From: an uncultured Chloroflexia bacterium
GTDB lineage: Bacteria > Chloroflexota > Limnocylindria > Limnocylindrales > CSP1-4
DNA length: 64,000 nucleotides
Assembly: GCA_963808895.1 (NCBI GenBank)
Contig: CAWEHL010000001.1
Span: 515,560 to 579,559, forward strand
Direction of reading: 5' to 3'
Shown here: piece after piece, positions 3,693 to 55,813 of the stretch
Numbering within the stretch: the first letter of the stretch is position 1
Layout of the letters: each line of letters begins with the position of its first letter
Made by a program: the position numbers and the translations under genes
The notes under the pieces: generated by a model
Database searches by the model: none
What the model was told of the DNA's origin: nothing
Seen by the model: only the letters and a program-made list of their open reading frames with translations

Positions 3693-3698
3693 GATGCC

Positions 3699-4604: not shown

Positions 4605-4611
4605 CCTGAGC

Positions 4612-5817: not shown

Positions 5818-5882
5818 CGGCGGCCGGGCGACCGAGCGACGACGTTCTCGACCCCGGCCGACCGTGGCGCATCGCGACCATC

Positions 5883-6773: not shown

Positions 6774-6790
6774 GATGGAGAGAATCTGAC

Positions 6791-9982: not shown

Positions 9983-10082
9983 GACGTTCCTTCGTGACAC
10001 GCACCATCTGGCTGCCCGATCTTGCCGAGCGCGCTGCCTATCGTGCGCTCGGCATGGGTCGTCACCCGTGCGGAGGGCGACG

Positions 10083-10739
10083 GTGACACGCCTTCTGCCG
10101 GAGCTGTACGACGCACGCTTCGACGAGCGCGAGATCAGCCGCAAGGACGACGTGTGGCGGGAGATCGTCGCGTACCTGGAGCGGTACATCGACCCGGCCG
10201 GGCCTACCCTGGACGTGGCGTGCGACCGAGGCCATTTCATCCGGTTCGTGACGACTCCCGAGCGGTGGGCCACCGACATCCGAGACATGCGCGCCGCGCT
10301 CCCGACCGATATCCGCTTCGTCCAGGGCTCCGGGCTCGACCTTGCCAAGCTGCTCCCCAACGGCCACTTCGCCACCGTGTTCATGAGCAACTACCTCGAG
10401 CACCTCGAGTCGAGTGACGCCGTGATCGACCAATTGCGCGTCGTCCGCGCGCTGCTTCGCCCTGGCGGTCGGGTGATCGTCCTCCAGCCGAACATCAGGC
10501 TCGTCGGGCCGCGCTACTGGGACTTCATCGATCACCGGGTCGCCCTGACCGAGCGAAGCCTCCTCGAGGCCGCCGAGGTCGCGGGCCTGCGGACCGTTGA
10601 CCTGATCACTCGCTTCCTGCCGTATTCGACGAAGGGCCGTTTGCCCACGGACCAGCGGCTGGTGCGGATCTATCTCCGCCTCCGCCCTGCCTGGTGGGTC
10701 CTCGGGCGTCAGACCCTGTTCGTCGGGGAAGCGACGTGA
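10083..10739 (+). CDS. Class I SAM-dependent methyltransferase
   Basis: GTG 10083 lies 5 nt after GGAGGG (track start is 10068). TLDVACDRGHF (motif I-like), LLRPGGRVIVLQPN. Confidence 0.7.
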   Translation: MTRLLPELYDARFDEREISRKDDVWREIVAYLERYIDPAGPTLDVACDRGHFIRFVTTPERWATDIRDMRAALPTDIRFVQGSGLDLAKLLPNGHFATVFMSNYLEHLESSDAVIDQLRVVRALLRPGGRVIVLQPNIRLVGPRYWDFIDHRVALTERSLLEAAEVAGLRTVDLITRFLPYSTKGRLPTDQRLVRIYLRLRPAWWVLGRQTLFVGEAT

Positions 10740-11491
10740 TCGCGGACGCCGGCGTGGCCGACCGCGACGTGATCCTCTCGATCGTGATGCCCGTCTTCAA
10801 GGAGGGCGATGCCGTCGAGCCGGTGATCCGCGCCCTGACGACCGATGTCGTCACGCCGCACGAGATCCTGGTCGTATACGACTTCGACGAGGACCCGACC
10901 GTCCCGGTCATCGCGCGGCTCGGCGCCGAGCTCCCGGCGGTGCACGGGCTCCGGAACGACCTCGGTCGAGGGGTGTTGAACGCCATGAAGGCGGGCATAG
11001 CCGCCGCGCGGGGAGAGTTCGTCCTCATCACGATGTCCGACGGATCGGACCAGCCGCAGATCGTCGACGAGATGGTCGCCAAGGCGCGCGCCGGTGCCGA
11101 TGTCGTCGCCGCGTCCCGATATATGCGCGGCGGTCATCAGATCGGCGGACCTCGACTCAAGCGCCTGATGAGCCGGACCGCGGGCCTGACGCTCCACTGG
11201 TTCGCGGGCGTCCCGACCCACGATCCGACGAACAACTTCAAGCTCTACTCACGGCGCTTCCTCGAGACCGTGACGATCGACAGCACCGCCGGTTTCGAGT
11301 TGGCCCTCGAGCTGACGGTCAAAGCGACGCTCGACCATCGTCGCGTGGACGAGGTGCCCACGACGTGGCGTGACCGGACCGCGGGCGAGAGCAACTTCAA
11401 ACTCAGGAAGTGGCTGCCGCACTACCTCGATTGGTATCGGCGAGCATTCGTGGGACGCTGGCTTCGGCGACGGGACGCGGCGCCGTCGTGA
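10736..11491 (+). CDS. GT2 polyprenyl-phosphate mannose/glucose synthase, DPM1-like (soluble type)
   Basis: LSIVMPVFKEG, ILVVYDFDEDPT, ITMSDGSDQP, ASRYMRGG, THDPTNNFKLYSRRF. GTGA overlap with the upstream stop. Confidence 0.8.
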   Translation: MIADAGVADRDVILSIVMPVFKEGDAVEPVIRALTTDVVTPHEILVVYDFDEDPTVPVIARLGAELPAVHGLRNDLGRGVLNAMKAGIAAARGEFVLITMSDGSDQPQIVDEMVAKARAGADVVAASRYMRGGHQIGGPRLKRLMSRTAGLTLHWFAGVPTHDPTNNFKLYSRRFLETVTIDSTAGFELALELTVKATLDHRRVDEVPTTWRDRTAGESNFKLRKWLPHYLDWYRRAFVGRWLRRRDAAPS

Positions 11492-12381
11492 TCGGCCGTC
11501 TGCGCCTCGCGCTCGAACGGATCGGCCTGCCGGCCTGGTTCGTCGCGATCGATCTCCTCTGGATCGCGAAGGTCGATGTGCTCGCGATCGACGCGCGCCA
11601 CTACCAGCGCGCGACGAACGCATGGCTCGCGGGGGGCGACCCGTTCGCGGTGACCGAGGGCACGACGCCCTACGTGAGCGGTCCGCACACCCTGTTGTTC
11701 TATGCCCCGACCTCGATCCTCCCGGTGACGGTCGCCACATGGGTCTGGATGGCGCTCGGTGTGGCCGCGTCCGTTTGGCTCATACGTCGTCTCGACCTGC
11801 CGCTGTGGTGGATCCTGTTCCCACCCTTGGCGCACGCGATCTGGAACGGCAACCCGCAGACGATCGCCCTCGCGCTGCTCGTCCTCGGCGGTCCACTCGC
11901 TGCTGCCGCTGCCGTCGGCTTGAAGCTCTACACCGGTCTGGCGCTCGCGTTCCGCTGGCGGGACGCCCTCGTGGCCGGCCTGTTCCTGTTGATCACGTTG
12001 CCGTTCGTGCCGTGGCAGCTCTATCTCGAACACTCCGGGACGGTCGCCGCGCACGTGGCGACGTCATGGAACGGCAGCGCCTGGCGCCTGCCGATCCTGC
12101 TGCCGTTCGCCGCGATCGCCATCTGGATCCTCCGCAAGGAGGGCGGAGCCTGGCACGCGGTGGGGGCGTTGTGGCCGGGAACGCAGTTCTACTACAACTC
12201 GATGGCGCTCCCCGCGATCGCCCACAAGAAGGTCGTGACCGCCTTCCTGGCCGTGCCCGTGCCGTTGATGGCGCCGGTCGTCGTGATCGCGCTCGCAGCG
12301 AAGCACGTGATCGATGCCCGCCGGCAATCGACGAGCGAGCTGCGGGGAGAGCGCAGCCCTATGGCCGAGGCCAGCGGCTGA
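11488..12381 (+). CDS. DUF2029-like polytopic membrane protein, paralog B
   Basis: GTGA overlap with the upstream GT2. NAWLAGGDPF, RRLDLPLWWILFPPL, ALLVLGGPLAA and ITLPFVPW parallel 5883..6773. Confidence 0.6.
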   Translation: MIGRLRLALERIGLPAWFVAIDLLWIAKVDVLAIDARHYQRATNAWLAGGDPFAVTEGTTPYVSGPHTLLFYAPTSILPVTVATWVWMALGVAASVWLIRRLDLPLWWILFPPLAHAIWNGNPQTIALALLVLGGPLAAAAAVGLKLYTGLALAFRWRDALVAGLFLLITLPFVPWQLYLEHSGTVAAHVATSWNGSAWRLPILLPFAAIAIWILRKEGGAWHAVGALWPGTQFYYNSMALPAIAHKKVVTAFLAVPVPLMAPVVVIALAAKHVIDARRQSTSELRGERSPMAEASG

Positions 12382-13660
12382 GAAGCGGTCCGTCGGCCGC
12401 GTCCCTCCGGAGCCAGAGCAGCGAAAGCACGGACAGGGCGACCACCGCCACCGACCCGACGATCCCCAGCGCTCCGGCGACCGGCAGGGCGGCCTCGAGC
12501 CCCGGCGTCGCCGGCACGGCGGCGATGAGGTTCAAGGTGATGACGACCGCGAGGATCGCCGCGAACCAGCGGAGGGATCGGTCCGGGATAAGCAGGAGAA
12601 CGACGACGAGGGCGGCATAGGCGTACCGCTCGTGCATCTGCGTCATCCACGTGAAGATCGTGAGGACCGACGCCACGACCCCGAGCACGAACGTTCGCGG
12701 GCGGGGGTCACGGATGATCGCCAGCCCGATGAGCACGGACAGGATCGCCGTCACGAGGTATCCGAGGTGGCGGAACGTGAACGGGCCGATGATCGCGACA
12801 TCGTCGCGGATGAAGTCACCCCCCGCGGCCACGACCTGGAGGATCCACCACGGATTCCACGCCCGCAGCGACAGGACGTTGAAGATCTCGTTCTGGTACG
12901 TGCCCAGGTTGCGCAGGTACCCGAGCGGGCCGGTGGGCAGGAACGGGATCCACAGCACGGCTGCCGTGACCCCGCCCAGGACACCAGCCCGGATGACGCC
13001 TCGCCAGCCCCCCGTCGCCCAGAACCAGGCCGCGAATGGGATCACGAAGGCGATGGCTTGTGGCTTCGTCATCAGGGACACGGCGATCAGGATCGCGGCG
13101 AGGTCGTTCCGGCCCTTGATCGCCGCGACGACCGCTGCGATAGCCGACAGCGCGAAGATCGCCTCGTATTGGCCCCACCACGCGCTGACGTACCAGGTCG
13201 CCGGCACGAGCAGGACCACGGCCCCGCCGATGGCAGCCCACCGTGGACGATCCCGAAGGGCGTACACGACGAGTGCCGCGAGCCCGAGGTCCGCGATGCT
13301 TGCCGGCAGCTTCATGAGTGCACGGATCGCCGGGTCGCTCGCGTCGGTGACCGTGGCGAACGCAGGCTGGATCGCTGCGAGCAGCGCCCAGACGTACGCC
13401 ATGACCGGGCCGAACGTGACCGGTCCGGCGTCCGTTCCCTCGTACAGCGTCGACAGGCCCTGGGTCGCGATGTGATGGACCCACCCGACGAACTGGTCGA
13501 TATCACCTCGAAGACCTTCGGTCGGGAGGAGCCAGACCCGGATCGCGATCCCGGCGACGACCGCGGCAAGGAGGATCAGCTGGTCGGCACGGCTCCAGCC
13601 GGCCGAGGGTCGATCAGACGCGGCTCGTCCGCCAGTACCGTTCGGCCTGCCCGTCGACAT
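12359..13660 (-). CDS. GT-C family membrane glycosyltransferase (PMT_2/DUF2029-like)
   Basis: 433 aa with more than 10 TM spans. First-loop acidic motif GLRGDIDQFVGW, MKLPASIADLG, MTKPQAIAF. Convergent 23-nt overlap with 11488..12381. Confidence 0.7.
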   Translation of the reverse strand: MSTGRPNGTGGRAASDRPSAGWSRADQLILLAAVVAGIAIRVWLLPTEGLRGDIDQFVGWVHHIATQGLSTLYEGTDAGPVTFGPVMAYVWALLAAIQPAFATVTDASDPAIRALMKLPASIADLGLAALVVYALRDRPRWAAIGGAVVLLVPATWYVSAWWGQYEAIFALSAIAAVVAAIKGRNDLAAILIAVSLMTKPQAIAFVIPFAAWFWATGGWRGVIRAGVLGGVTAAVLWIPFLPTGPLGYLRNLGTYQNEIFNVLSLRAWNPWWILQVVAAGGDFIRDDVAIIGPFTFRHLGYLVTAILSVLIGLAIIRDPRPRTFVLGVVASVLTIFTWMTQMHERYAYAALVVVLLLIPDRSLRWFAAILAVVITLNLIAAVPATPGLEAALPVAGALGIVGSVAVVALSVLSLLWLRRDAADGPLLSRWPRP

Positions 13661-14693
13661 CGCCGACCGAGGCGAGCGCCGCGCCGTACGACCGAACGGC
13701 GTCGCCCATCTGGCGCGAGCCGTCGAACAGCCGCTCGACCTGGCTCTCGTAGATCGAGATGCCGGTGATCTTGCGCTCGATCTGGTCGGTGATGTCCGCG
13801 AACGCCGGGTAGACGCTCACGTCGGCAGGCAAGTCGGCGAATGCGTCCGGTCCGAGCTGATCGAGCGTTCGGAAGTCGTTCCACAGCGCGTAGGGGAAGT
13901 CCTCGTAGAAGACCACGGTCCCCGCGTATTCGGGACCGGGCATGACCCAGCCTTGCCCGAGGTTCAGCAGGTCGATCCCGACCTGGCGGCAGAGCCGATG
14001 ATCGACATGTCCACCGACGCCGAGCGGCAGGTACACCTTCTGCGGCTCGAGGCGCTCGATCTCGCGGCGGATGAGCTGGCCCAGCTGCAGGTCGTCCTCG
14101 CGCGGCGCGCCGAGCAGCTCGGCTTCGCCCTCGTATCCCCGGAAGACCGCGTCGGGCTGATCCAGGAAGACGATCGACGCCTCGGCGAAATAGCAGTAGC
14201 GCTCGTCTTCCATGCGACGACGTGCCGTGAGGTCGCCGGCACCGGCGGCTTCCATGATCTCGTCGGTCGCGACGGCGCCCTGCGTCGGCAGGTCGTCGAT
14301 CACGGGCTGCCCCGCGAGCGACTCGGCACGGATGCTCGCGCGTCGATACCACGACGACCGCTGCCAGAAGCGCTTCGCCGCGGCGTCTGCATCGGTCTGC
14401 GTCGCTTCGAGTTTGTCGTCCTCGGCGGCCCACGCCTGCCCGAGCGGGTAATCCGGCAGGATCGAGCTCCGGTTGTAGGCCTCACCGGACGGCCACACCG
14501 CCTTGCTGCCGACGCCCAGGACCTCGCGTCCGAAGTTCGGGACCCCGGCGACGCCCGCCATGCCGTCCACGTCCTCACCCGAGAAGACCGTGATGATCGC
14601 GACGTTCTGGCCGAGCTCGCGGAGACTCGCGATCAGCCCGCCGCAGGACAGGGCGACATCGTCGGGGTGAGGCGCGACGAAGACGTGGGTCAT
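13614..14693 (-). CDS. PIG-L/LmbE family N-acetylglucosaminyl deacetylase with C-terminal extension
   Basis: VFVAPHPDDVALSCGGLIA and GVGGHVDHRLC zinc-site motifs. Confidence 0.85.
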   Translation of the reverse strand: MTHVFVAPHPDDVALSCGGLIASLRELGQNVAIITVFSGEDVDGMAGVAGVPNFGREVLGVGSKAVWPSGEAYNRSSILPDYPLGQAWAAEDDKLEATQTDADAAAKRFWQRSSWYRRASIRAESLAGQPVIDDLPTQGAVATDEIMEAAGAGDLTARRRMEDERYCYFAEASIVFLDQPDAVFRGYEGEAELLGAPREDDLQLGQLIRREIERLEPQKVYLPLGVGGHVDHRLCRQVGIDLLNLGQGWVMPGPEYAGTVVFYEDFPYALWNDFRTLDQLGPDAFADLPADVSVYPAFADITDQIERKITGISIYESQVERLFDGSRQMGDAVRSYGAALASVGDVDGQAERYWRTSRV

Positions 14694-14729
14694 GGCCGCC
14701 CGAGTATATCGAGCGGTACCGGCCCGAAC

Positions 14730-15413
14730 TCAGAACCAGCGGCGCCAGCCATCGTCTCGCCGCTCACCCTCGTCGGGGAACCCGCCCTCGCCGATGAGCG
14801 GCACGAAGACGACGGCACCGTGCGGTGTCTCGCGCCACTCGTCGCCATCCCGTACGACGAGCGTCAGGACCTGGTGGTCGCGTGGGCCGACCGGGATCAC
14901 CAGGCGCCCACCATCGGCAAGCTGGCCCCGAAGCTCGTTCGGGATCGATGGGGCGGCCGCGGTCACGATGATGCCGTCCCAGGGGGCGCCCCCCGCGTCG
15001 CCGAGGCTGCCGTCGGTCGACCGGATCGTGACCGTACCGGGGAGCTCCAGGGCCGAGATCCGCTCCGCCGCTTGGGCGGCAAGGACGTCGTGGCGCTCGA
15101 GGCTCGTCACGTATGCGCCGAGAGCCGCCAGGATCGCTGCCTGATAGCCCGACCCCGTTCCGAGCTCGAGGACCCGTTCACCCGGCTGCGGTGCCAGCAA
15201 CTCCGTCATGCGAGCCACGACCCACGGCTGGCTGATGGTCTGACCGGCGGCGATCGGGACCGCTTCGTCGGCGTATGCGCGCCCTTGCTGATCGCGGTCG
15301 ACGAACAGCTCTCTCGGGACCGCGGCCATCGCCGTCAGCACCCGTTCGTCACGGATGCCCCTGGCCCGGAGTTGTTCCTGGACCATGCGCCGCCGATCGT
15401 CGTCAGCGCCCAT
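14730..15413 (-). CDS. pcm: Protein-L-isoaspartate O-methyltransferase
   Basis: GQTISQPWVVARMTELL, VLELGTGSGYQAAILA, RLVIPVG. Confidence 0.9.
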   Translation of the reverse strand: MGADDDRRRMVQEQLRARGIRDERVLTAMAAVPRELFVDRDQQGRAYADEAVPIAAGQTISQPWVVARMTELLAPQPGERVLELGTGSGYQAAILAALGAYVTSLERHDVLAAQAAERISALELPGTVTIRSTDGSLGDAGGAPWDGIIVTAAAPSIPNELRGQLADGGRLVIPVGPRDHQVLTLVVRDGDEWRETPHGAVVFVPLIGEGGFPDEGERRDDGWRRWF

Positions 15414-46057: not shown

Positions 46058-46738
46058 TTAGGCCTGCTTGCCGCGTGACTCCAGGAGGACCGTGATCGTC
46101 TCGGCAGGCAGGCTGGACGACGTCACCGAGAGCTTCGGCTGGGTCACCGGCTCAGCGCCCATCTCGTGGAAGAACTTCGCCAGCGCCTCGGCGCAGTCGC
46201 CGTCGTCGTCGCAGAGCGTCATCGGGACGACGATCTTCGGGTCCAGCTGGGCCATCAACGAGGCGGCTTTCGTCGGGCTGAGGGTGCCGCCGATCGGGAC
46301 ACAGGCGATGTCGATCTCTCCGATGTCGGCGAGCTTCTCCTCCGACAGCAGATGGCCGATCTCGCCGAGGTGGATCGTATGGACGCCGTCGACCTCGACG
46401 ACGAACGACACGCCCTTCCCGTGCTCGGCGCCTTTCGCGTCGTCGCGGTACGTGCGGACGCCCGTCACGAGCACCTCCTTCACCTCGTACTCGCCCGGTC
46501 CGTCGAGGACGAACGCTGCGTCGAGGCTGGAGGGGATCAGGGTCGTCCCGTCCCGGGACAGCTTCCCTTTCGGCTTGCCACGGGCGACCGGGGCGTCGTC
46601 CGGGTGGCTGAACGTGATGATGTCGCCGGTGATCCCGCGACCGGTGGGACCAACGACCGACTGATAGGGATCCGCCACGACCACGGCATCCTTGCCACGC
46701 AACCGGACGCAGGTCCGGCCGTACCACGTCATCTCCAT
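46058..46738 (-). CDS. MBL-fold protein (Lactamase_B_3/UPF0173-like) with degenerate HxHxDH motif
   Basis: MEMTWYGRTCVRLRGKD..., FSHPDD in place of HxHxDH, HLGEIGH, ACVPIGG. The start was chosen by family-typical N-terminus; the track start 46837 is upstream. Confidence 0.65.
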   Translation of the reverse strand: MEMTWYGRTCVRLRGKDAVVVADPYQSVVGPTGRGITGDIITFSHPDDAPVARGKPKGKLSRDGTTLIPSSLDAAFVLDGPGEYEVKEVLVTGVRTYRDDAKGAEHGKGVSFVVEVDGVHTIHLGEIGHLLSEEKLADIGEIDIACVPIGGTLSPTKAASLMAQLDPKIVVPMTLCDDDGDCAEALAKFFHEMGAEPVTQPKLSVTSSSLPAETITVLLESRGKQA

Positions 46739-46803
46739 CAGCGACGATTCTGACATAGCGCCCTGCACGGCCGCTTTGCGTCCGCTCGCGTTCTGACGCG
46801 CCA

Positions 46804-46852
46804 CGGAAAAACGGAAAGACCGGGAGCGCCTGCCCAATCGGCGCTCCCGGTC
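46804..46852 (-). terminator. Strong intrinsic-terminator-like hairpin in the leader of the MBL gene
   Basis: Minus strand has a 13-bp perfect stem GACCGGGAGCGCC/GGCGCUCCCGGUC with a 9-nt loop, followed by UUUCCGUUUUUCC. Confidence 0.55.
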
Positions 46853-46980
46853 GGAGGGAGGGAGGATGGAACCCTAAGGGTTCGTCCGATCGCTACGCTA
46901 CGGCGCCCTGATTGCGGGTCGAGACGGCATCCGATTAAGAAAGCGACACCGATCCATCAGCTGGGCCGGATCGGCATCGC

Positions 46981-48279
46981 GTGTACGATCGGGCCATGGA
47001 TCGACCCCTGATGCGACCGGTCGCGACCGCCGCGATCGTCGCCCTTCTCGCGGCCGCATGCGGCTCGCCCGCCCCGTCGGCCAGTCCCTCCGCGGCGGCC
47101 TCGCCGTCACCGTCCTCGAGCGCCCCGGTCGCCTCTCCGAGCGCGTCGGGCTCTGGGGGCGACGAGGCCGTCTACGCCGCGATCAACGAGCAGGTCCGGG
47201 CGATCCGCGGCCTGCAGGAGAAGACGCCCGTCGAGCCGACCATCGTGTCGCCCGACGAGATGACCCAGGTCCTCAAGGACTCGTTCAGCGAGGACTACCC
47301 GCCCGACCAGGTCGCCGCCGACGAGCAGCTGTACCACGGCCTCGGGCTGCTTCCGAAGGACGACAAGCTGGCCGACCTCTACATCGACCTCCTGTCGAGC
47401 CAGGTGGCCGGCCTGTACGACCCGATCAAGAAGAAGCTGTACGTCGTCTCCAAGCAGGGCGGCATCGGCGCGGTGGAGAAGGTCTACTACTCGCACGAGT
47501 ACGACCATGTCCTGCAGGACCAGAACTTCGACCTCCAGAAGATGCAGGACGGTCTCGATGACAAGACCGACGAGGCCCTCGCCCGTCAGTCGCTGGTGGA
47601 GGGCGACGCCTACCTCACGATGTCGTACTGGTTGCAGCAGAACCTGACACCCGAGGAGATCGGCGAGGTCATCCAGGCTTCGAACGACCCGACCGCGCAG
47701 CAGGCGCTCAACCGGATCCCGGCCATCGTCCAAGCGCAGATCACCTTCTCCGCCATCCAGGGCACCCAATTCGTCACGTCCATGCAGCTGGGCGGTGGCT
47801 GGGAAGCCGTCAACAGCGGGTTCGCCGATCCGCCCACCTCGACCGAGCAGATCCTTCACCCGGAGAAGTACACCGCGCATGAAGCGCCGGTCGCCGTGGA
47901 GCTCCCGGCGGACCTCGCGAAGCGGATGGGGTCGGGCTGGTCGACCGTGATGAGTGACACGATGGGCGAGCACCAGACGGCGATATGGCTCGGCTCCGGG
48001 ACCGTTGCCGCGGCGACGGACGCATCAGCCGGCTGGGGCGGCGACCGGATCACCTACCTGAGCGGCCCGAACGGGGGCTGGGCGATCGCATGGCACACGG
48101 TCTGGGACACCAAGGAGGACGCAGCCGAATTCGACGTGACCGCGAAGACGGCCGTCGAAAAGGCGGGTGGTCCCGGCCAGGTGCTCCCCGGCGCGGGCGG
48201 GACGACCCGGTGGGTCGTCATCGGCAGCGACGACGCCGCGCTCCAGAAGGTGGCGAACGTCCTCGGGCTGGCGGGCTGA
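46981..48279 (+). CDS. Lipoprotein with HExxH zinc-peptidase-like motif
   Basis: Lipobox ALLAAC-GS, Ser/Pro/Ala linker, YYSHEYDHVLQDQNF (HExxH), downstream LVEGDAYL. The start may be ATG 46996 or 47011. Confidence 0.7.
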   Translation: MYDRAMDRPLMRPVATAAIVALLAAACGSPAPSASPSAAASPSPSSSAPVASPSASGSGGDEAVYAAINEQVRAIRGLQEKTPVEPTIVSPDEMTQVLKDSFSEDYPPDQVAADEQLYHGLGLLPKDDKLADLYIDLLSSQVAGLYDPIKKKLYVVSKQGGIGAVEKVYYSHEYDHVLQDQNFDLQKMQDGLDDKTDEALARQSLVEGDAYLTMSYWLQQNLTPEEIGEVIQASNDPTAQQALNRIPAIVQAQITFSAIQGTQFVTSMQLGGGWEAVNSGFADPPTSTEQILHPEKYTAHEAPVAVELPADLAKRMGSGWSTVMSDTMGEHQTAIWLGSGTVAAATDASAGWGGDRITYLSGPNGGWAIAWHTVWDTKEDAAEFDVTAKTAVEKAGGPGQVLPGAGGTTRWVVIGSDDAALQKVANVLGLAG

Positions 48280-48338
48280 CCGCTCCGGGACCCGGCCGCG
48301 AGGCCGCCGGCCGCGGGCCGCAGCGGGCCCGCCGCGAC

Positions 48339-50021
48339 CTACATCGACTCGGGCGCTGAGATCCCGAGCAGCCCGAGCGTCCTCGCGAGCGTGACCTGCG
48401 TCGCCCGGGCGAGGGCGAGGCGTGAGGCCGACCGGCCCGGATCGTCCGGATCGACGACACGGGCGTCGCGATAGAACGCATGGAACGCGGTCGCGAGCTG
48501 CGTCGCATACGTCGTGATGCCGTGGGTCTCTTCCGCGATGACCGCGTCCTCGACGACTTCCGGTAGGCGAACGACCTCCCGCGCGAGGGCGGCCTCCGGG
48601 CCGTCGGCGAGCGTCCCGGCGACCGTCGATGCCGGCTCGAGCCCGACCTCCGTCGCCTTGCGCAGGATCGACGCGATCCTTGCGTGGGCGTACTGCACGT
48701 AGTAGACGGGGTTCTCGTTGGACTGTTTCTTCGCGAGCTCGATGTCGAAGTCGATCGACGACGTGGCCCCGCGCGAGGCGAAGAACCAGCGAGCCGCGTC
48801 GACGCCCACCTCGGCCAGCAGTTCGTCGAGCGTGATGAACTCGCCGGCGCGCTTGGACATCGAGATCTCGACGCCGTCGCGAACGAACCGGACCCAGGAG
48901 TAGAGCAGCATCTGCACCGCGTCGATGTCATAGCCCATCGCCTTCGCGGCATTCCTGACGCGCGCCACCGTCCCGTGGTGGTCGGCTCCCCAGATATAGA
49001 TCAGGTGGTCGAAGCCCCGGCTGAACTTCTCCGTGACGTAGCCGATATCGGCAGCGAAGTAGGTCGGCTGTCCGTTCGAGCGGTAGATGACGCGGTCCTT
49101 GTCGTCGCCGAGGTCGGTGCTCCGGAACCAGATGGCGCCGTCCTGCTCGTAGACGTATCCCCGCTCGCGCAGGCGCTCGACCGCTCGGGCGACCCATCCC
49201 TCCTCGTGGAGGGAGCGCTCCGTCGTCCAGACGTCGAAGTGGACGCCAAGGCGCTCGAGGCTGGCCTCGATGCCGCTGCGCACCTGGGCCGCCGCCCAGC
49301 GGCCGAGGACGTTCGACGTGTCCGCCTCAGGCGACGTCGCCTCCGCCCAGACCTCCGCCGGGACGGCCGACGCGAGGTCGTCGACGTAGTCGCCGCGATA
49401 GCCGTCGTCCGGAACGGGCTCACCGCGTCGGAGCGCCGCCACCGACGCGCCGAGCTGGTCGATCTGCCCACCCGAGTCGTTGAAGTAGTACTCCCGCGTG
49501 ACCTCCTGGCCGCCGGCCTCGAGGACCCGGCTGAGCAGGTCGCCGATGAACGCGCCGCGCGCGTTGCCGATGGTCAGCGGCCCGGTCGGGTTCGCCGACA
49601 CGAACTCGACGTTCACGCGCCGCGCGGAGATCGGCTCGACGCGACCCCATCGGTCGGGGTCGCTCAGGATCCCGTCGACGATCGCCTCGAGGGCGGTCGC
49701 CTTCAGCCGGACGTTGAGGAAGCCCGGCGGCGCCACCTCGGCTGCCTCGACCGGGGAGGCGTTCTGCGCTGAGCTCGCGTCGCGTACGAGCTTCGCGGCA
49801 AGCAGGGTGGCGAGCTCGAGCGGTGGCCGTCGGTACGGGCGTGCGAGCTTCATCGCGAGATTGGTCGAGAAGTCTCCGTGATCCGCGTCGGTCGGTCGCT
49901 CCACCTCGATCGCCGGGCGTGCATCGGCCTCGAGGGCTGCGAGCGAGCCGTCCTCGATCGCGAGCGCCCACGCCCGTTCGACGGCATGGCGTACCTGGGT
50001 GCGCAGAGGGGCCGGGGTCAC
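48339..50021 (-). CDS. argS: Arginine--tRNA ligase
   Basis: C-terminal 560 aa of track ORF 48339..51395. SANPTGPLTIGNARGA, YIWGADHHG, MSKRAGEF. GTG at 50021. Confidence 0.92.
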   Translation of the reverse strand: MTPAPLRTQVRHAVERAWALAIEDGSLAALEADARPAIEVERPTDADHGDFSTNLAMKLARPYRRPPLELATLLAAKLVRDASSAQNASPVEAAEVAPPGFLNVRLKATALEAIVDGILSDPDRWGRVEPISARRVNVEFVSANPTGPLTIGNARGAFIGDLLSRVLEAGGQEVTREYYFNDSGGQIDQLGASVAALRRGEPVPDDGYRGDYVDDLASAVPAEVWAEATSPEADTSNVLGRWAAAQVRSGIEASLERLGVHFDVWTTERSLHEEGWVARAVERLRERGYVYEQDGAIWFRSTDLGDDKDRVIYRSNGQPTYFAADIGYVTEKFSRGFDHLIYIWGADHHGTVARVRNAAKAMGYDIDAVQMLLYSWVRFVRDGVEISMSKRAGEFITLDELLAEVGVDAARWFFASRGATSSIDFDIELAKKQSNENPVYYVQYAHARIASILRKATEVGLEPASTVAGTLADGPEAALAREVVRLPEVVEDAVIAEETHGITTYATQLATAFHAFYRDARVVDPDDPGRSASRLALARATQVTLARTLGLLGISAPESM

Positions 50022-50315
50022 CGCGGCATCGTACCGGCGGAGGCAGGGGGACGTCGGTACCGGTGTGGGTCCTGGGCCGTCGGTCCGGGGGTCCTGGGTG
50101 ACCCTTCGTTGCTGGGCGTCAACGAAATCATGGCCGCCTGGGCGGTGGTGGTGGGACTGGTGTAGTCGCCGGTCGCCAGAGGTACTAGACCGGCCAGTAC
50201 CCGCGTGTGAATATCCGGCCCTCGTTCGGTGCACGGACACCCCGACAGGGGACAAGCGGCCGAAACGGGGGGACCACTCAACCAGAGGCTTCGGCCTCAG
50301 CTCGGGGACCGTCAC

Positions 50316-51125
50316 ATGTCGAGAACTCATTCCGGCGCACGATCGCGCCTCGCCCGCCGCCTGTCGTGGCTGGGCGTCGTCTCCATGATCGCGGTGGCGT
50401 TGCTCGCCCCGTCGACCTCGCCCGCGCTCGCGGCTGCGCCTGGCAACAACGCCACGGTGAAGATCGAGGATTCGGTCAACCCGAAGCCCGAGCCCGCGAA
50501 CGATCCGCACGTCTGCCAGTTCGACATCAAGTTCTACTTCGCGGACCCCGGGCAGGCCGGTGACTGGCACATCCAGTCGTGGCCTCCGACGGGCGACAAG
50601 ACGACCGTCCTCGAGGGGACGTACGACACCAACAGCCAGGGCTTCGATCGTCAGCCGACGAGCGGCTACTACTCGCTGCCGGACGGCCACTACAAGCTGT
50701 TCTGGAAGGGCGACGAGGAGAAGCTCTGGAAGCACAAGGTCTTCTGGGTCGAGTGCCAGCCGGCGCCGACCGAGACGCCCAAGCCCACCGAGACGGTGAA
50801 GCCGACCGAGACGCCCACGCCGACCGAGACGCCCAAGCCGACGAAGACGCCGTGCCCGCCCTCGGAGACGCCCAAGCCGACCGAAAAGCCCAAGCCGACC
50901 GAGACGACGCGGGTCGATCCCACGCCGAAGCCCACCGGTGACGTCGGGCCCTCGAGCGGAAAGACCAACCCGCCGCACGCGACCCTGCCCCCGACGGACA
51001 CGCTCGACGGTGCCTCCTCGGCGCCGGCGAGCGACAGCTGGCGGATCATCCTCCTCGCGATGGCCGGTCTGCTGACCGCCGCCCTGATGCTGACTCCGGC
51101 CCGCGCGGCCCGGAAGCAGGACTAG
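50316..51125 (+). CDS. Secreted protein: signal peptide, ~110-aa domain, Pro-Thr-Glu-Lys linker, C-terminal TLPxT..DxWR-TM-basic tail
   Basis: MSRTHSGARSRLARRLSWLGVVSMIAVALLAP..ALA-AAPG, HVCQFDIKFYF, KHKVFWVEC, PTETPKPTE repeats, TLPPTDTLDG..SDSWRIILLAMAGLLTAALMLTPARAARKQD. Confidence 0.8.
   Translation: MSRTHSGARSRLARRLSWLGVVSMIAVALLAPSTSPALAAAPGNNATVKIEDSVNPKPEPANDPHVCQFDIKFYFADPGQAGDWHIQSWPPTGDKTTVLEGTYDTNSQGFDRQPTSGYYSLPDGHYKLFWKGDEEKLWKHKVFWVECQPAPTETPKPTETVKPTETPTPTETPKPTKTPCPPSETPKPTEKPKPTETTRVDPTPKPTGDVGPSSGKTNPPHATLPPTDTLDGASSAPASDSWRIILLAMAGLLTAALMLTPARAARKQD
50764..50908 (+). repeat. Coding tandem repeats (about 18-nt units, PTETPK-type linker)
   Basis: ccgaccgagacgcccaag-like units are reiterated about 7 times. 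Confidence 0.8.
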
Positions 51126-51159
51126 CGTTCGCCGACCCGAGCGCCCGATAGCCTCGGTA

Positions 51160-51207
51160 TCCGAGCAGCCGACGACCGCCGCCCTCACCCGGCGGCGGTC
51201 GTCGTCC
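51160..51207 (+). repeat. 48-nt hairpin module, copy 1 (also a terminator candidate for 50316..51125)
   Basis: TCCGAGCAGCC + 13-bp stem GACGACCGCCGCC/GGCGGCGGTCGTC + GTCC, 35 nt after the stop. Confidence 0.7.
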
Positions 51208-51307
51208 ATCCGATTTCCCAGCTCGTGACGCGATCGTCGTGATCGCACCCCTGCGACCGCGCAGGAACGCCAGCGCTCGATGACCCGGAGTGTCCGAGCC
51301 GCTCTGG

Positions 51308-51354
51308 TCCGAGCAGCCGACGACCGTCGCCCTTCCCGGCGGCGGTCGTCGTCC
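51308..51354 (+). repeat. 47-nt hairpin module, copy 2
   Basis: Same flank TCCGAGCAGCC and same stem, with one substitution (a G-U pair in RNA) and a loop 1 nt shorter. Confidence 0.7.
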
Positions 51355-51547
51355 GTCTGCCAGGTGCACGAAATCGGTGCGTGACGGCACCGCAAGTGTC
51401 AACGGTTTGACGCTCGCGGTGACCCGAAAGTACTAGACGTGGACCCGGGACCATGGGACCATGCGCGGCCTCGGCTCCACGAGTGGGGGCTCTAGGCCGA
51501 GCCGTCATGCCCGAGGCGCACGCCTCACCTCTTGGGGACCGTATCGA

Positions 51548-52459
51548 ATGACTGCCCAAAAGCGTTCTCGAGCGAGCCGACGACTCGGCTGGCTCGTCGT
51601 CGTCGGTCTCGCGTTGTCCGCGCTCCTCTGGCCGGCGACCGCGGTCGCAGCGACCGGCGCGATCTGGACGTCGCTCTCGAATGGCGCGACGGTGAACGCG
51701 AACATCTATGACGCGAAATCAGACGTCTACCTGAACGGCGGACCGCAGAACTGCGGCAACGGTGGCGGCCTGCCCGACGGCCTGTACTACTTCCAGGTGA
51801 CGGATCCGAGCGGTGCGACGCTCCTCTCGAGCGATGCGCTCAAGTTCCGGATGGTCAGCGTGAGCGGCGGCGTCATCGCCGGTACCGGCGGCACGGGCAA
51901 CCACAACGAGGGCACGGGTGGCTGCAACGGTGGTACGCCGGTCCAGCTGATGCCGTACGACGACACGCCGAACAACGGTGGCGAGTACAGCGTGGACATG
52001 GCGCCCCAGGCGGACGTGGAGGACTGCGCCGGCTTCAGTGCGAATTCGACGTCATTCAACTTCCTTGACTGCACCACTTCGAAGAACGACAACTTCAAGG
52101 TGAAGCTCGCGGCGACGCCGACCCCGACGCCGGCACCGACCGCGACACCCACCCCGGCACCGACCGCGACTCCGACCCCGGCACCGACCGCGACTCCGAC
52201 CCCCGCACCGACCGGCAGCGTCGAGCCGACGCAGACCGTGAATCCGACCGCGACGCCGGCACCGACCGGGAGCGTCGAGGCCGCGACGGCGACGCCCGCT
52301 CGGACCTTGCCCTCGACGAGCACGATCGACGGGTCGGGCAACGGCCCGATGAACGATGGTTGGCGCGTCGTCCTGCTCGCGCTGGCGGGCGTCCTCGCGA
52401 CCGCACTGCTGCTGACGCCGGCGACGGCCGTGATCCGAAAGGACGATCGGCGCCGCTGA
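51548..52459 (+). CDS. Secreted protein, paralogous in architecture to 50316..51125
   Basis: MTAQKRSRASRRLGWLVVVGLALSALLWP..AVA-ATG, GLPDGLYYFQVTDPSGATLL, TPTPAPTA x4 linker, TLPSTSTIDG..NDGWRVVLLALAGVLATALLLTPATAVIRKDDRRR. Confidence 0.8.
   Translation: MTAQKRSRASRRLGWLVVVGLALSALLWPATAVAATGAIWTSLSNGATVNANIYDAKSDVYLNGGPQNCGNGGGLPDGLYYFQVTDPSGATLLSSDALKFRMVSVSGGVIAGTGGTGNHNEGTGGCNGGTPVQLMPYDDTPNNGGEYSVDMAPQADVEDCAGFSANSTSFNFLDCTTSKNDNFKVKLAATPTPTPAPTATPTPAPTATPTPAPTATPTPAPTGSVEPTQTVNPTATPAPTGSVEAATATPARTLPSTSTIDGSGNGPMNDGWRVVLLALAGVLATALLLTPATAVIRKDDRRR
52111..52214 (+). repeat. Coding tandem repeats (24-nt units, TPTPAPTA linker)
   Basis: About four near-identical 24-nt units. Confidence 0.8.
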
Positions 52460-52578
52460 CCGTCAGGCGAACATAGGGGTCCCCGAGACCCGGGCGGAGC
52501 GCCGCGCTGTCCGTGTGGTGCTCCGCCCACGTCTCCCGCGCTGGAACGGGATAGGCGCTCGGCCGCGGGCCGAGCGGG

Positions 52579-53361
52579 TCAGATCGTGAAGGTCGACCCC
52601 GGATGCACGAGCTCGACGGGGCCGTCGTAGACGGCACGCACGGACGCGACCGTCGCGTCCGGGTCGAAGCCCATCTGGAGATGCGTCAGGAGCACCCGGC
52701 CGACGCCTGATCGCGCGGCGAGATCGCCGACGGCGGGACCGTCGAGATGGAGGGCGTCAGCGGCGACCGGGCCGGGTCCGAACGACACTTCCGAGAGGAG
52801 CCAGTCCCCGGGCACGACCAGCGGCTGGAGGTCGCTCGCTCGACCGCAATCCCCCGAATAGACGAGACCTGGGCCGTCCCCGACCGAGACGCGGAACGCG
52901 TGGCTATCGGCCGTATGGGTCACACGGATCGCCCTGATGTGGAATGGCCCGACCGTGATCTCGCTCGGGATCGGTTCGACGTCGAGCGTCGCCGCGGTGA
53001 ACCCGGGCTCGTCATGGAGTGCGTCGATGCGCCCGGCCAGGCCGGTCGGCGCGACCACACGAACGTGGCGTTCGGGGTCGAATTGCCAGCGCAGGTAATG
53101 ACGCATCGCGACGAGGTCGATGAAATGGTCGGGATGCAGGTGGCTGATGAATACGGCATCGACCGTGCTCGGTTCGAGGGTCGCGGCGAGTCTCGGAAAG
53201 GACCCCTGGCCGAGATCGAGGACGATCGCCGTCGAGTCGGCACGGAGCAGGTAGGAGGCGCCGGCGGCCCCGAGTCGATCGGTGTAGGCCGGTCCGGCCC
53301 CGAGCACGTCGAGACTCATCTGCGCGGACGTGACGGCATCCACGCCGTGAGCGTAGCCCAC
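52579..53361 (-). CDS. MBL-fold metallo-hydrolase
   Basis: FISHLHPDHFIDL (HxHxDH), YSGDCG, LLTHL. The start may be at MSLDVLG (53319). Confidence 0.8.
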   Translation of the reverse strand: MGYAHGVDAVTSAQMSLDVLGAGPAYTDRLGAAGASYLLRADSTAIVLDLGQGSFPRLAATLEPSTVDAVFISHLHPDHFIDLVAMRHYLRWQFDPERHVRVVAPTGLAGRIDALHDEPGFTAATLDVEPIPSEITVGPFHIRAIRVTHTADSHAFRVSVGDGPGLVYSGDCGRASDLQPLVVPGDWLLSEVSFGPGPVAADALHLDGPAVGDLAARSGVGRVLLTHLQMGFDPDATVASVRAVYDGPVELVHPGSTFTI

Positions 53362-53375: not shown

Positions 53376-54348
53376 TCAGTCCTGTCGGTCGGGTGGACCG
53401 CCAGGGGACTGGTCGTTCGGCTTCGGCGTCTTCGTCGGCTTGGGAGTCGGGGCCGGGTGCTCGGTCGCCGCCGGCTTGCCCGTGGCCTCGGGCCGCTCTG
53501 GAGCCGCCTTGGTCGGCTTCGGCGTGGCCTGCTGACCGTTCGCCCCGGCGCCAGCTGCGCCGCCATCGCCAGCCTGCGAGCCGCCGCCGTTGCCGCCCTG
53601 GTCGCTACCTGTCGGGCCGTGGCCAGCGGCGCCACCGGCCGGGCTCGGCCGATCGACCGCACCCACGGTGTCGATCGCCCCCGCACTCCGTGCGATCGCG
53701 CGCGCGACAGCGCCGCTGATGGCTGCCGCCGCGCGTGGCGGCACGTGACCGACCAGCGCTTCGAGCACCTCGACGTTGCGTCCGAGGCCGGTCTCGAGCG
53801 CTGCGGCGGCCACGGGATCGCCAGCGGCGAGAACGTCTTTGGACGCCTCGATCATGATCCGCTCGTACGCCCCGAGCGCAGCGGCCGCCGCAGCGTCATC
53901 GCCGTTTCGAGCCGCGGCCTCGGCCTCCCGGAGCCGGTCCGCCAGGCGATCCAGTTCGGCGACCGCACGGGCGGAGGGATCGGACGGCAACGACGCGTCC
54001 TCGATCCACAGTCGCGCCTCGTACAAGGCTCCACCAGGACCCGATGACGCCGCCGCCGCACCGACCATCGCGCCGACGAGGATGGCCGCCGCGATGAGTG
54101 CGACAGCGGCTCGCCGGCCGCCACGACGCCCTCGTTCGATCGACGCGCGGGAGGCGATGTCCGGAACGATGGTCAGCGCCGCGTCCGCTCGCGCCAGATC
54201 CGCGCGTCGGTGGGCATGCGCGAGAACGCGTGCCCGCATCCGTGACGTCGCCGTGAGCTCGGGCGTCAGGCGAACGTCGGCGTACGCCTCGAGGCGTCGC
54301 CGAAGACGTACATCCCCCGCCGTCGAGATCGATCATGTCGTTGCTCAT
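53376..54348 (-). pseudogene. Anti-sigma-factor-like membrane protein (DUF5667-like) with Pro-Thr-Lys tail; one extra base in a G5 run near 54314
   Basis: MSNDMIDLDGG then DVRLRRRLEAYADVRLTPE...RMRARVLAHA in the next frame. TM AAVALIAAAILVGAMVGAAAA. The span is 973 nt (1 mod 3). ATGA overlap with the sigma gene. Confidence 0.6.
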
Positions 54349-54987
54349 CGACCGATCCGTCCATCGTTCGCGGCGTCGTCGCCGCGTTCGGTGTCGGGCT
54401 CGTCGATCCGGAGCTGCCGCCGCAAGCGCGGCGATCGCCCGGAACTGGAGCCCGCGGATCGTCCCTTCCTGCTTGCCCATCACCTCGGCGGCTTCGCGGG
54501 CCGACAGGCCGGCGAAGAAGCGCAGCGCGATGGCGTCTCGTTGTTCGTCCGTCAGCGCCGCGAGCGCGGCCGCGACCTCGTCGAGCTCCTGGCGCGCGAC
54601 CGTGACCTCGTCCGGGCCTGCATCGGCGCCGGGCTGGTCGACTGGCCGACGTCGAGGTCGACGTGGTCGTGCCGCGTCCGGACGTGATCGATGACCGCGT
54701 TCCTGGCCAGCCGGAAGAGCCAGCCCCCGAACGGGATGCCCCGCGCCTCGTAGCGCGGCAGCGCTTCCAGGGCCTTGACGAAGACGAGCTGCGTCAGGTC
54801 CTCCGCGTCCGACGGGCGGTGGACGCGGCTGGCGATGTAGCGATAGACCGGCAGGTGGTAGTGATCGAACAGGAGTCCGAACGCCCAGGCGTCCCCCGAC
54901 TCGGGCCTCCTGCACCAGCCGCTCGATCGCGGCGTCGTCGAGGGTCACAACGAACGTCCCGCCGACCGCGTTAGGCGTGGTGGCCAT
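54345..54987 (-). pseudogene. ECF (group 4) sigma-70 factor; at least 3 frame disruptions as assembled
   Basis: Region 2 DAWAFGLLFDHYHLPVYRYIASRV...DLTQLVFVKALEAL...GWLFRLARNAVIDH lies in one frame. Region 4 LTDEQRDAIALRFFAGLSAREAAEVMGKQEGTIRGLQFRAI lies in another. Confidence 0.7.
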
Positions 54988-55813
54988 CGGCACCACCACC
55001 GAGTCGTCGCCTCGCCGGAAGGTGAGTCGGCTCGAAACCGGCGGCTGCCGCGACCCGGTAGCCGTCGTCGAGCGCCCACGCGAAGGTGTCGGCGCGGTGC
55101 GCATCGGAGCCGATCGTGATCCGCTCGCCGCCGAGCTCCCGGAAGCGCGCCACGATACGGGCGGGCGGGTAGATCTCCCTGGCCTCCTGGCGGAGCCCGC
55201 TCGTGTTGATCTCGAGCGCCGTGCCGGTCTCGACCAGGGCGTGGAGCAGCGGCTCGTACAGCTCCGGCGCCGCGGCGAGGTCGGCGGCGGTCACGTGCGG
55301 CGCCAGGTAGCGCTTGACGACGTCGAGATGGCCGATCGCATCGAACAGGCCGGCTGCGGATCGCCCGTCCGACCTCTGCGAAGTACGGCTCCACGACCTC
55401 GCTGAGCGACCGTCCGGCGACCCAGTCGCGACGTTCGACGCCTCGTACGGCGAGCCGCGATAGACGTGGACCGACCCGATCGTGAAGTCGTAGGCGTGAT
55501 CGCGCAGGTGGTCGCGGATATCGTCGGCCCACCGACGATCCCAGGTGATCTCGACACCGAACCGGATGGCCAGGCCGCGATCGGCCCAGCGCTCGGCCGC
55601 TTCCCGGACGATGCGCTCGCGATCGGCGAACGACACGTACCGATACGCCGGCGCGCCGGGCTCGAAGTCGACGTGGTCGGTGATCGCGATCTCGGGGATG
55701 CCGCGCTCGACGGCCTGCGACGCGAAGACGTCGATCGGCACCTCGCTGTCGGGCGACAGGTCGGTGTGCAGATGCGCATCGAGCGGCAGGTCGCGCGCCT
55801 GGCGATCGCTCAT
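54971..55813 (-). pseudogene. PHP-domain histidinol-phosphatase family protein; internal and C-terminal frame disruptions
   Basis: LDAHLHTDLSPDS, EIAITDHVDF, GSVHV. DWVAGRSLSEVVEPYFAEV lies in another frame, then FDAIGHLDVVKRY and ITIGSDAH. The 3' end is unresolved. Confidence 0.65.

Follow-up and report, generated by a model that had tools for sequence, protein, structure and literature searches.

A conserved argS-linked surface-protein locus of Limnocylindrales with exchangeable cargo and a putative C-terminal sorting or anchoring tail

Two neighbouring genes, here called A and B, lie in a 64,000-nucleotide stretch of DNA from an uncultured soil member of the Limnocylindrales (Chloroflexota; assembly GCA_963808895.1, contig CAWEHL010000001.1, positions 515,560 to 579,559 of the forward strand); this whole stretch is called the window, and its own numbering is used throughout. 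We propose that A and B fill two "slots" in a surface-protein locus that is conserved yet hypervariable and extends from argS (arginyl-tRNA synthetase) to a gene for a metallo-β-lactamase (MBL)-fold hydrolase. The fixed parts of a slot would be a promoter and 5′ untranslated region (5′UTR) containing the box GTACTAGAC, a signal peptide with the pattern R-x-x-[G/S]-W-L-[A/V]-V, a C-terminal module of ~75 residues and a GC-rich hairpin, and the β-sandwich cargo between the signal peptide and the linker would be swapped by recombination inside these conserved ends. In its sequence, the tail of the C-terminal module resembles the signals for C-terminal sorting or anchoring, above all those of sortases; this role is putative, as is cleavage at the tail.

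Both proteins consist of a signal peptide, a globular part that differs between them, a tandem-repeat Pro/Thr linker and a similar tail; each of these elements, which the original prediction had recognized in the two genes, was borne out. The signal peptides are basic and hydrophobic with an AxA site (ALA↓A in A, AVA↓A in B), and the start of gene B was placed at the ATG at 51548 rather than at the earlier start of the mechanically called open reading frame (ORF) because the signal peptide begins there. In a whole-protein BLASTP comparison, the best high-scoring segment pair lay in the tails (47% identity over 77 residues, E = 5e-18) and the second in the signal peptides (52% identity over 33 residues, E = 3e-6), and the globular middles gave no alignment. 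Compared on their own, the tails were 51% identical across 51–55 residues. Tandem Repeats Finder (TRF) detected an 18-nt period in the linker of gene A (50765–50906) and 12/24-nt periods in that of gene B (52113–52214). AlphaFold2 (AF2) models of the two proteins, built on small alignments (mean pLDDT 57 and 62; domains 70–89), displayed the same layout of signal helix, β-sandwich, disordered linker and C-terminal helix (residues 241–259 of A and 271–289 of B). The window has a GC content of 65–74%, and two antisense ORFs overlap A and B (48339–51395, minus strand, 1,018 aa; 51787–52530, minus strand, 247 aa); these are by-products of the high GC content and the Pro/Thr repeats, not genes, and the first merely prolongs argS upstream.

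The tail is widespread within one lineage. A two-sequence profile already matched 18 tail fragments, the named ones coming only from Candidatus Limnocylindrales. A search of 1.84 billion cluster representatives with a 14-sequence tail profile yielded 603 protein clusters at E ≤ 1e-3, of which 235 reached E ≤ 1e-10. Of these, 150 proteins were listed, 36–783 aa long, and the match occupied the extreme C-terminus of nearly every one. All named sources are Limnocylindrales or Chloroflexota, in which the proteins are labelled "hypothetical" or, wrongly, "DedD." A genome scan with one genome per species returned 22 loci, all from Chloroflexota or from Limnocylindrales metagenome-assembled genomes (MAGs); as its pattern mainly retrieves orthologous loci, this number cannot gauge the members per genome. 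Clustering of the first ~90 cargo residues of 133 full-length members, the only part that gave a usable count because the Pro/Thr linkers spoiled whole-cargo clustering, separated at least 20 unrelated cargo families. One C-terminal tail is thus found on proteins with unrelated N-terminal regions (603 clusters, at least 20 cargo families), as in sorting domains generally. On this sequence evidence, the tail is that of a family and not of a local duplication, and the caveat of the original prediction, that only these two proteins might carry it, does not hold at the lineage level.

The anatomy of the tail was derived from 191 distinct sequences, for which the search pattern itself required the Pro and Thr of the box as well as the later T-P. 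Their consensus order is a Pro/Thr stalk, G-x-V-x-[G/A]-[A/E]-T-[G/A]-T-P-x-[V/A/T], the box, a spacer, W-R, a hydrophobic helix, T-P and a basic end. The box reads T-[L/P]-P-[P/S/A]-T-[D/S]-[T/A/S], with T at position −1 in 96% of the tails and then L in 79% or P in 17%, P in 72%, S in 15% or A in 10%, D in 87% or S in 10%, and T in 67% or A in 16% at the positions that vary; Gly is not among the four commonest residues after the box Thr. The box is far better conserved than the adjoining spacer, which is variable in sequence, has 11–12 residues as parsed in 162 of the 191 tails and ends in P-[A/S]-[G/S]-D-[S/G]. The helix boundary is marked by W (93%) and R (87%), and the hydrophobic stretch from W-R to T-P is exactly 16 residues long in 184 of the 191 tails; 16, not the 17 originally predicted, are also counted in A and B. 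Within this stretch, A7 (97%), L14 (98%) and L3 (90%) are near-invariant, the distance from box to helix is nearly constant across tails, and T-P is followed by 5–12 Arg/Lys-rich residues. An example of a box peptide is GTPKVTLPPTDTLGG.

The box is also present in profile matches that fail the search pattern, where it reads TLPPTD, TPPPTS or TVPATD and, once, TLPPSD. Giant proteins of 1,500–1,860 aa, encoded at the same locus in other genomes, combine TLPPTD and a spacer with P-G-F, a different helix and T-P, and they use a signal peptide that differs from the A/B type. P-G-F is limited to these giant paralogues, and the helix boundaries of A and B are instead D-S-W-R and D-G-W-R. A third tail subtype, found in two related loci (L044, ~1648, and L055, ~1191), has TLPPTAT, the helix SLSMIFLGLGLVIAGALFLL and a DKPK...RRRR end; it keeps the box and loses both W-R and T-P. 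An LAxTG-like motif, x-[A/G]-[E/A]-T-G-T-P, lies ~10 residues upstream of the box and was considered as the primary signal, but it was rejected as degenerate in A (SSGKTNPP) and B (AATATP). In addition, 86-aa ORFs in loci L011 (1128–1388) and L012 (7591–7851) comprise little beyond the tail, and two contigs of one MAG break within near-identical tails; these may be cassette remnants or assembly breaks caused by the repeated tail.

The cargo carried in front of this tail is diverse. No Pfam domain was found in A or B. In the AF2 model, the cargo of A is a β-sandwich of 7–8 strands (residues 47–145, pLDDT 70–86), and Foldseek searches with the cargo models of both proteins returned only generic Ig/macroglobulin-like β-sandwich matches with low TM-scores, so that no specific function can be assigned to them. 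Among 109 longer members of the family, Pfam identified SpaA prealbumin-like domains (10 members), SpaA_4, DUF5979, DUF7601, DUF7507, DUF11 and SdrD_B, and NCBIfam gave weak pilin-like and MSCRAMM-like matches that were partly or mostly driven by the Thr/Pro linkers. A repertoire of the SpaA/SdrD_B/DUF11 type is usual for wall-anchored proteins of monoderm bacteria.

Related loci were reached in three ways: the genome scan with the tail pattern, exact look-ups of three long and dissimilar members, and a metagenome scan with a different pattern. Whichever way they were reached, nearly all loci whose flanks extend far enough have argS and/or the MBL-fold gene beside the tail genes, and only one of the long loci (L017) is a clear exception to this shared site. 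The syntenic order is MBL-fold, Hvo_1808/DUF8575-type, argS, the tail genes, MBL-fold, anti-sigma/sigma, PHP, aminotransferase, ADH and FAA hydrolase. One to four tail genes are present per locus, clustered at one site, and the family within a genome seems, as far as the retrieved sequences go, to be confined to one locus with 1–4 members, which is unlike classical multi-paralogue sorting systems.

Comparison of close relatives revealed where this locus changes. The window and the related locus L002 are collinear with 86% DNA identity from 46059 to 51607, a segment that reaches into the signal peptide of gene B; similarity is absent from 51608 to 52110, the gene B cargo, and is back at 83% from 52111, where the linker starts. 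In this slot, L002 has an "ICHATG...NPY" cargo, and a further locus, L016, retains the "GAIWTS" cargo of the window. In more distant genomes, gene A homology stops at ~50377–50434, the end of the signal peptide, and restarts at ~50971, in the tail. The DNA of the tails has diverged about as much as the flanking housekeeping genes (70–76% versus 73–78% identity); because of this, and because homology is lost across the cargo, the ends have passed down with the locus, and the cargo has been replaced. A-type and B-type ends are each kept in their own slot across species. The locus thus shows synteny together with an abrupt loss of homology that, between close relatives, is limited to the exposed domain, as is characteristic of a hypervariable locus. 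Cargo exchange within a slot architecture, a pattern not recognized in the original prediction, best accounts for the upstream DNA, signal peptide and tail that the genes share. The locus appears to encode the main variable surface proteins of Limnocylindria.

Surface loci with exchangeable middles are known from flagellin central domains, the slpA S-layer cassette of Clostridioides difficile and the sap locus of Campylobacter fetus. The present locus resembles them in its conserved flanks and conserved 5′ and 3′ gene ends, in the abrupt loss of homology over the exposed part and in its many cargo types. It differs from them in that the conserved ends are a signal peptide and a membrane-anchor tail, and in that silent cassettes and a recombinase were not seen here; the mechanism of exchange is deduced from sequence comparison.

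The DNA upstream of the slots is shared as well. GTACTAGAC occurs twice in the 64 kb of the window, against 0.03 occurrences expected, and 35 times in related loci totalling 591 kb, in each case on the strand of the genes; 29 of these 35 occurrences lie 117–151 nt before the ATG of a tail gene. In an alignment of 35 upstream regions, from which the upstream elements were defined, the conserved parts are, in order, the invariant GTACTAGAC(G/C), TG-n-GA(C/A)TAT 17 nt further on, a GAGGC-loop-GCCTC hairpin, and GGGGAC(C) ahead of the ATG. The original prediction had singled out GTACTAGAC and GGGGACCGT as sequences common to A and B. The former held; GGGGACCGT alone is not rare (3 found versus 1.44 expected), but GGGGAC(C) directly before the ATG is kept in homologous genes of other genomes. 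The upstream block could be a shared promoter, with a −35-like element in GTACTAGAC and an extended −10, followed by a leader of ~90 nt. A strict sigma-70 promoter scan called none here, and Rfam gave no match, so that neither supports this assignment; RNAalifold found no covariation in 23 5′UTRs, so that the GAGGC/GCCTC hairpin is neither supported nor refuted as an RNA structure. About 200 nt upstream of the tail genes, an inverted repeat recurs in ~30 related regions with arms that change together (CGGTGC/GCACCG versus CGTTGC/GCAACG), and a dimeric regulator might bind it as an operator, or it may form a hairpin in RNA or DNA. Gene A is followed by two copies of a hairpin, each of ~50 nt, which are 96% identical and are both present in L002 and L016. 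The hairpin after gene A is likely a terminator; a terminator scan left it uncalled, and it has no T-run. The second copy may mark a slot that was lost; alternatively, the two copies together may form a double terminator.

We compared the tail with known C-terminal signals. The sorting-signal models of NCBIfam 20.0 and Pfam did not match A, B or the isolated tails even at E ≤ 10, TIGR01167 and PF00746 were absent among the families matched by the 109 longer members, and variant tails gave no match to these two models either. The PEP, GG and Cys signatures of PEP-CTERM, GlyGly-CTERM and MYXO-CTERM are absent from the tails, in agreement with the lack of any NCBIfam match at E ≤ 10. A Pfam Smim3 match on gene B (E = 2.5e-5, just below cutoff) covers the hydrophobic helix only and was taken as compositional. 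No description of the tail was found in the literature searched on Limnocylindria together with sortases, on Chloroflexi sortases or on the motif itself. The tail lacks the Gly and is not matched by the models, and it is therefore not a member of the LPXTG family as now defined; nor does it belong to any other curated CTERM family.

Nevertheless, the tail has much in common with the LPXTG signals of sortases (TIGR01167/PF00746; variants LPxTA, LPxTN, LPxTD, LAxTG, NPQTN and [S/P]PxTG). It has the tripartite arrangement of box, hydrophobic segment and basic end, and in A and B the hydrophobic segment and positive end stand at the extreme C-terminus; the box keeps L/P-P-x-T, a Pro/Thr-rich stalk precedes it, and the cargo is of the SpaA, SdrD_B, DUF11 and pilin-like kinds. 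The distance from LPXTG had therefore been overstated in the original prediction: the tail is indeed without a model, but LPxT(D/S) retains the key positions of the pentapeptide. The differences are that the Gly after Thr is replaced by D or S (LPPTD in A, LPSTS in B), that about a dozen residues of nearly fixed length part the box from the helix, and that W-R, the helix sequence and T-P are conserved too. The tail also shares a Thr-rich stalk, a C-terminal helix and a basic end with the PGF-CTERM/archaeosortase A signals and with those of exosortases, rhombosortases and myxosortases; the giant paralogues have PGF at the start of the helix, and PGF-CTERM-type systems likewise serve one or a few abundant surface proteins per cell. 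Variant tails, the PGF type included, repeatedly gave sub-threshold NCBIfam matches to Heimdall-CTERM, to PGF_CTERM and to the C-terminal regions of ArtA-dependent S-layer glycoproteins of archaea (E = 0.04–3.5). Unlike in those systems, the host is bacterial, A and B have D-[S/G]-W-R in place of PGF, PEP, GG or Cys, an extra LPPTD box lies upstream, and no exosortase-family gene was seen in the window. The scores of the tail are far under the cutoff (at least 24.5 bits required), those of variant tails against archaeal-type models being 7–12 bits versus a cutoff of 24; the giant PGF tails did not match TIGR04126, and the sole PGF_CTERM match came from a W-Q-type tail (7.4 bits, E = 3.5).

We suggest the following model for the tail proteins. 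After export by the signal peptide, the 16-residue helix and the basic end would stop transfer and hold the protein in the membrane, and the Pro/Thr stalk would raise the cargo across the wall. An extracytoplasmic processing enzyme would recognize the box T-[L/P]-P-x-T-[D/S], which would lie about a dozen residues away from the membrane on its outer side. This enzyme would most likely be a transpeptidase of the sortase type, cleaving behind the Thr and attaching the protein to the envelope. We put forward this combination of a stop-transfer anchor with a sortase-type site in LPxT(D/S) tentatively, with somewhat less than even confidence. A sortase-type step is favoured because the box keeps the L/P-P-x-T positions, because the cargo is of the sortase-substrate kind, and because the box, not the helix, is common to the three tail subtypes; that the box persists while helix and signal peptide change suggests that it, and not the helix, would be recognized, outside the membrane. 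LPxTD, moreover, appears among sortase motifs and is already treated as one of their variants (PMC9210967), which also favours this step.

Several observations weigh against a sortase. No sortase signature of the TLxTC pattern was found in any frame of the window and ~411–590 kb of related loci, a weak negative given that these loci are mostly the same region and were screened by the sortase regular expression only, plus Pfam on the L017 neighbours. Sortase, Exosortase, Rhomboid and CPBP are absent from the Pfam matches listed for the window ORFs, which comprise 25 of 40 families for one set of the remaining ORFs. Pfam searches of the syntenic neighbours, the membrane proteins of the window and the off-locus neighbours in L017 did not reveal a processing enzyme either, although no sortase-seeded protein search was made; the original prediction had also seen none in the window. 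The residue after Thr is D or S, not G, and the curated LPXTG models give no match. W-R, the helix sequence (A7, L14) and T-P are conserved in the main subfamily, and a sortase would not need them. The distance between box and helix is longer than in typical sortase signals and strikingly fixed here. Finally, the 1–4 members seen per genome, all at one locus, would be unusual for a housekeeping sortase. Thus, the original prediction of a novel tripartite sorting signal stands insofar as the tail is a genuine, recurrent and strictly C-terminal module on unrelated proteins; processing and cleavage are still presumptive, and the family seems confined to one locus within a genome.

The foremost alternative is an uncleaved type I membrane anchor, in which the tail would tether the protein in the cytoplasmic membrane for life and there would be no proteolytic sorting, an explanation that we consider quite possible, though well short of even. 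The box, W-R and T-P could then belong to a juxtamembrane stalk that is O-glycosylated or contacts a wall polymer, or could serve helix packing via the small-xxx-small motif A-G-L-L-A. A conserved helix of exactly 16 residues fits a specific intramembrane contact, and the few members per genome, the vertical inheritance of the tail with the locus (70–76% versus 73–78% identity for the flanks), the failure of the window scans to find a processing enzyme and the presence in the window of a glycan-biosynthesis cluster with GT-C-like membrane proteins are all consistent with such an anchor. It leaves unexplained, however, why a near-invariant six-residue box stands beside a freely varying spacer and why this box survives when the types of helix and signal peptide are replaced. 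In addition, to our knowledge, every well-studied C-terminal family with a motif, a helix and a basic end has proved to be a processing signal. A trivial local event, namely a recent tandem duplication of one membrane-anchored protein whose shared ends have no wider meaning, is very improbable. The two genes adjoin and share their ends, but hundreds of clusters carry the tail on unrelated cargo, and tails that are just 51% identical are not recent copies; as many species keep the A-type ends in the A slot and the B-type ends in the B slot, we regard a recent local duplication as ruled out.

A processing enzyme other than a sortase seems rather unlikely to us, although some features would suit it. 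The enzyme could be polytopic, of the exosortase/archaeosortase or rhomboid/CPBP type, and recognize the point where the helix begins (D-[S/G]-W-R; P-G-F in the giants). A membrane-embedded enzyme would fit a box held at a constant distance from the membrane and a conserved boundary, and the PGF-bearing giants repeatedly approach archaeal S-layer models. Those approaches end at 7–12 bits against a cutoff of 24, however, families of exosortases, rhomboids or CPBP proteases did not show up in the window, and the retention of the box across different helices is contrary to helix-based recognition. Alternatively, an extracytoplasmic metalloprotease could cut the L-P-P-T box to mature or shed the protein. 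Clostridial Pro-Pro endopeptidases act in this manner: PPEP-1/Zmp1 of C. difficile and its relatives cut anchor-proximal sites of the sortase-anchored adhesins encoded beside them and so release these adhesins. The tail genes likewise have an L-P-P site near the anchor and, two genes off in conserved synteny, a gene for a secreted, lipobox-like protein with the invariant pattern HE..H.LQD..F...EGDA (46981–48279). This candidate matched NCBIfam Hvo_1808 (E = 8.7e-39, below cutoff), its homologues carry a precomputed Pfam DUF8575 annotation, and from its motif it could be an extracytoplasmic metalloprotease. However, it is of the Hvo_1808/DUF8575 type, with a resemblance to the Pro-Pro endopeptidases in general features and a putative protease activity; it lies within a block of housekeeping synteny, where adjacency may mean nothing more; and the Pro-Pro pair varies, gene B having L-P-S-T. 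A link between this neighbour and the tail genes is therefore speculative. In Haloferax, HVO_1808 itself is a lipobox protein that is associated with the cell and has no known function (PMC2945643).

A bolder idea, which we regard as unlikely, is that Limnocylindria possess an envelope-anchoring system not yet described, for which the tail would be the signal. Its enzyme, different from a classical sortase, would read T-L-P-P-T-D at a fixed height above the membrane and attach or release the protein, the Hvo_1808-type HExxH neighbour and a membrane enzyme being candidates, and the argS–MBL locus would act as a "display scaffold" that retains its promoter, signal peptide and anchor and on which lineages trade cargo, probably under pressure from phages or predators.

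The remaining neighbours of A and B are of several kinds. The MBL-fold product of 52579–53361 is similar to cyclic-nucleotide-degrading phosphodiesterases (NCBIfam NF041851, E = 2e-37, below cutoff), and its homologues are annotated as Pfam Anti-Pycsar_Apyc1. Just downstream of the locus, 53376–54239 (minus strand) encodes an anti-sigma-like protein with a weak DUF5667 match and a Pro/Thr-rich C-terminus, followed at ~54240–55104 (minus strand) by an ECF-type sigma factor, whose start and frame are approximate since the region-4 match falls in an ORF (53896–55104) that overlaps the anti-sigma ORF. A glycan cluster occupies ~1–15400 of the window, with two GT2 and GT1/GT4 glycosyltransferases, a DegT aminotransferase, an epimerase, a UDP-glucose dehydrogenase, a GNAT protein and a PIG-L deacetylase; two membrane proteins within it (5883–6773 and 12359–13660) gave weak GT87 and ALG6/8-like matches. 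This cluster could serve glycosylation of the Pro/Thr stalks or synthesis of a wall polymer.

Table 1. Features of the A/B locus and of related loci, in window coordinates unless a locus number is given
Feature	Position	Strand	Basis or remark
Secreted HExxH neighbour, two genes upstream	46981-48279	+	Lipobox-like LLAAAC; HExxH at 47494-47508
argS (arginyl-tRNA synthetase), upstream flank	48339-50020	-	ORF translation; homologues with Arg_tRNA_synt_N, tRNA-synt_1d, DALR_1; 5′ end approximate, mechanical ORF extends to 51395
Inverted repeat TTCGTTGC-N6-GTCAACGAA	50105-50126	+	Upstream of A; counterpart of CGGTGC-N-GCACCG at other slots
GTACTAGAC box of gene A	50182-50190	+	Starts 134 nt before ATG; putative -35-like TAGACC at 50186-50191
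TG-T-GAATAT, putative extended -10	50206-50214	+	17 nt after -35-like hexamer; conserved block c.TG.GA.TATCC
5′UTR hairpin GAGGC-N4-GCCTC, gene A	50285-50298	+	Invariant in alignments
GGGGACCGT, ribosome-binding-site-like, gene A	50304-50312	+	
Gene A	50316-51125	+	269 aa
Gene A signal peptide, residues 1-39	50316-50432	+	Family motif R..RLARRLSWLGV; site at residues 37-40
Gene A cargo, ~105-aa β-sandwich	50433-50756	+	Conserved Cys67 and Cys147; AF2, family alignment
Gene A Pro/Thr linker, PTETPK repeats, closing with G.V...T..P segment	50757-50981	+	TRF; pLDDT <50
Gene A box T-LPPTD-T	50982-51002	+	LPPTDT itself 50985-51002
Gene A variable spacer LDGASSAPASDS, then W-R	51003-51044	+	WR at 51039-51044
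Gene A 16-aa hydrophobic helix IILLAMAGLLTAALML, T-P, basic end ARAARKQD, stop	51045-51125	+	T-P and basic end from 51093
GC-rich hairpin after gene A	51160-51210	+	14-bp perfect stem, 51170-51204
Second copy of gene A hairpin	51308-51357	+	Stem 51318-51351; 148 nt downstream of first
Inverted repeat CGGTGC-N6-GCACCG	51375-51392	+	Upstream of B; alignment
GTACTAGAC box of gene B	51430-51438	+	Starts 118 nt before ATG; putative -35-like TAGACG at 51434-51439
TG-G-GACCAT, putative extended -10 of gene B	51454-51462	+	Suggested by alignment only
5′UTR hairpin GAGGC-N4-GCCTC, gene B	51513-51526	+	Invariant in alignments
GGGGACCGT, gene B	51534-51542	+	
Gene B	51548-52459	+	303 aa, from ATG; longer mechanical ORF begins at 51461
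Gene B signal peptide, residues 1-34	51548-51649	+	SRRLGWLVV motif; site at residues 32-35
Gene B cargo, ~150-aa β-sandwich, GAIWTS... family	51650-52108	+	AF2; segment replaced in L002
Gene B Pro/Thr linker, TPTPAPTA repeats, closing with GSVEAATATPAR	52109-52303	+	TRF
Gene B box T-LPSTS-T	52304-52324	+	LPSTST itself 52307-52324
Gene B spacer, W-R, helix, T-P, basic end ATAVIRKDDRRR, stop	52325-52459	+	WR at 52361-52366; T-P from 52415
Gene B 16-aa helix VVLLALAGVLATALLL	52367-52414	+	Sequence, AF2
Hairpin after gene B, between convergent genes	52485-52535	+	19-nt arms, 84% complementary
MBL-fold hydrolase, downstream flank	52579-53361	-	Pfam Lactamase_B_2
Giant paralogues	L006 10848-16436; L009 4870-9309; L027 407-5422		Also in L049 and L050

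Limnocylindria (formerly Ellin6529) are abundant in soils and lakes. The class is represented by 282 genomes of ~2.4 Mb and 69% GC (PMC10608941), and neither a cultured representative nor a description of its envelope was found in the literature searched. The tail profile together with the GTACTAGAC box provides a sequence handle for finding such surface proteins in metagenomes. If LPxT(D/S) is truly a processing site, the range of sortase-like signals would extend into a deep monoderm lineage; if the box is not a sortase site, a new enzyme would await discovery. The slot architecture is the more interesting part of these results, as a clean natural case of cargo exchange on a fixed export-and-anchor scaffold that bears on phage–host and predator–prey dynamics in soil and on the engineering of surface display.

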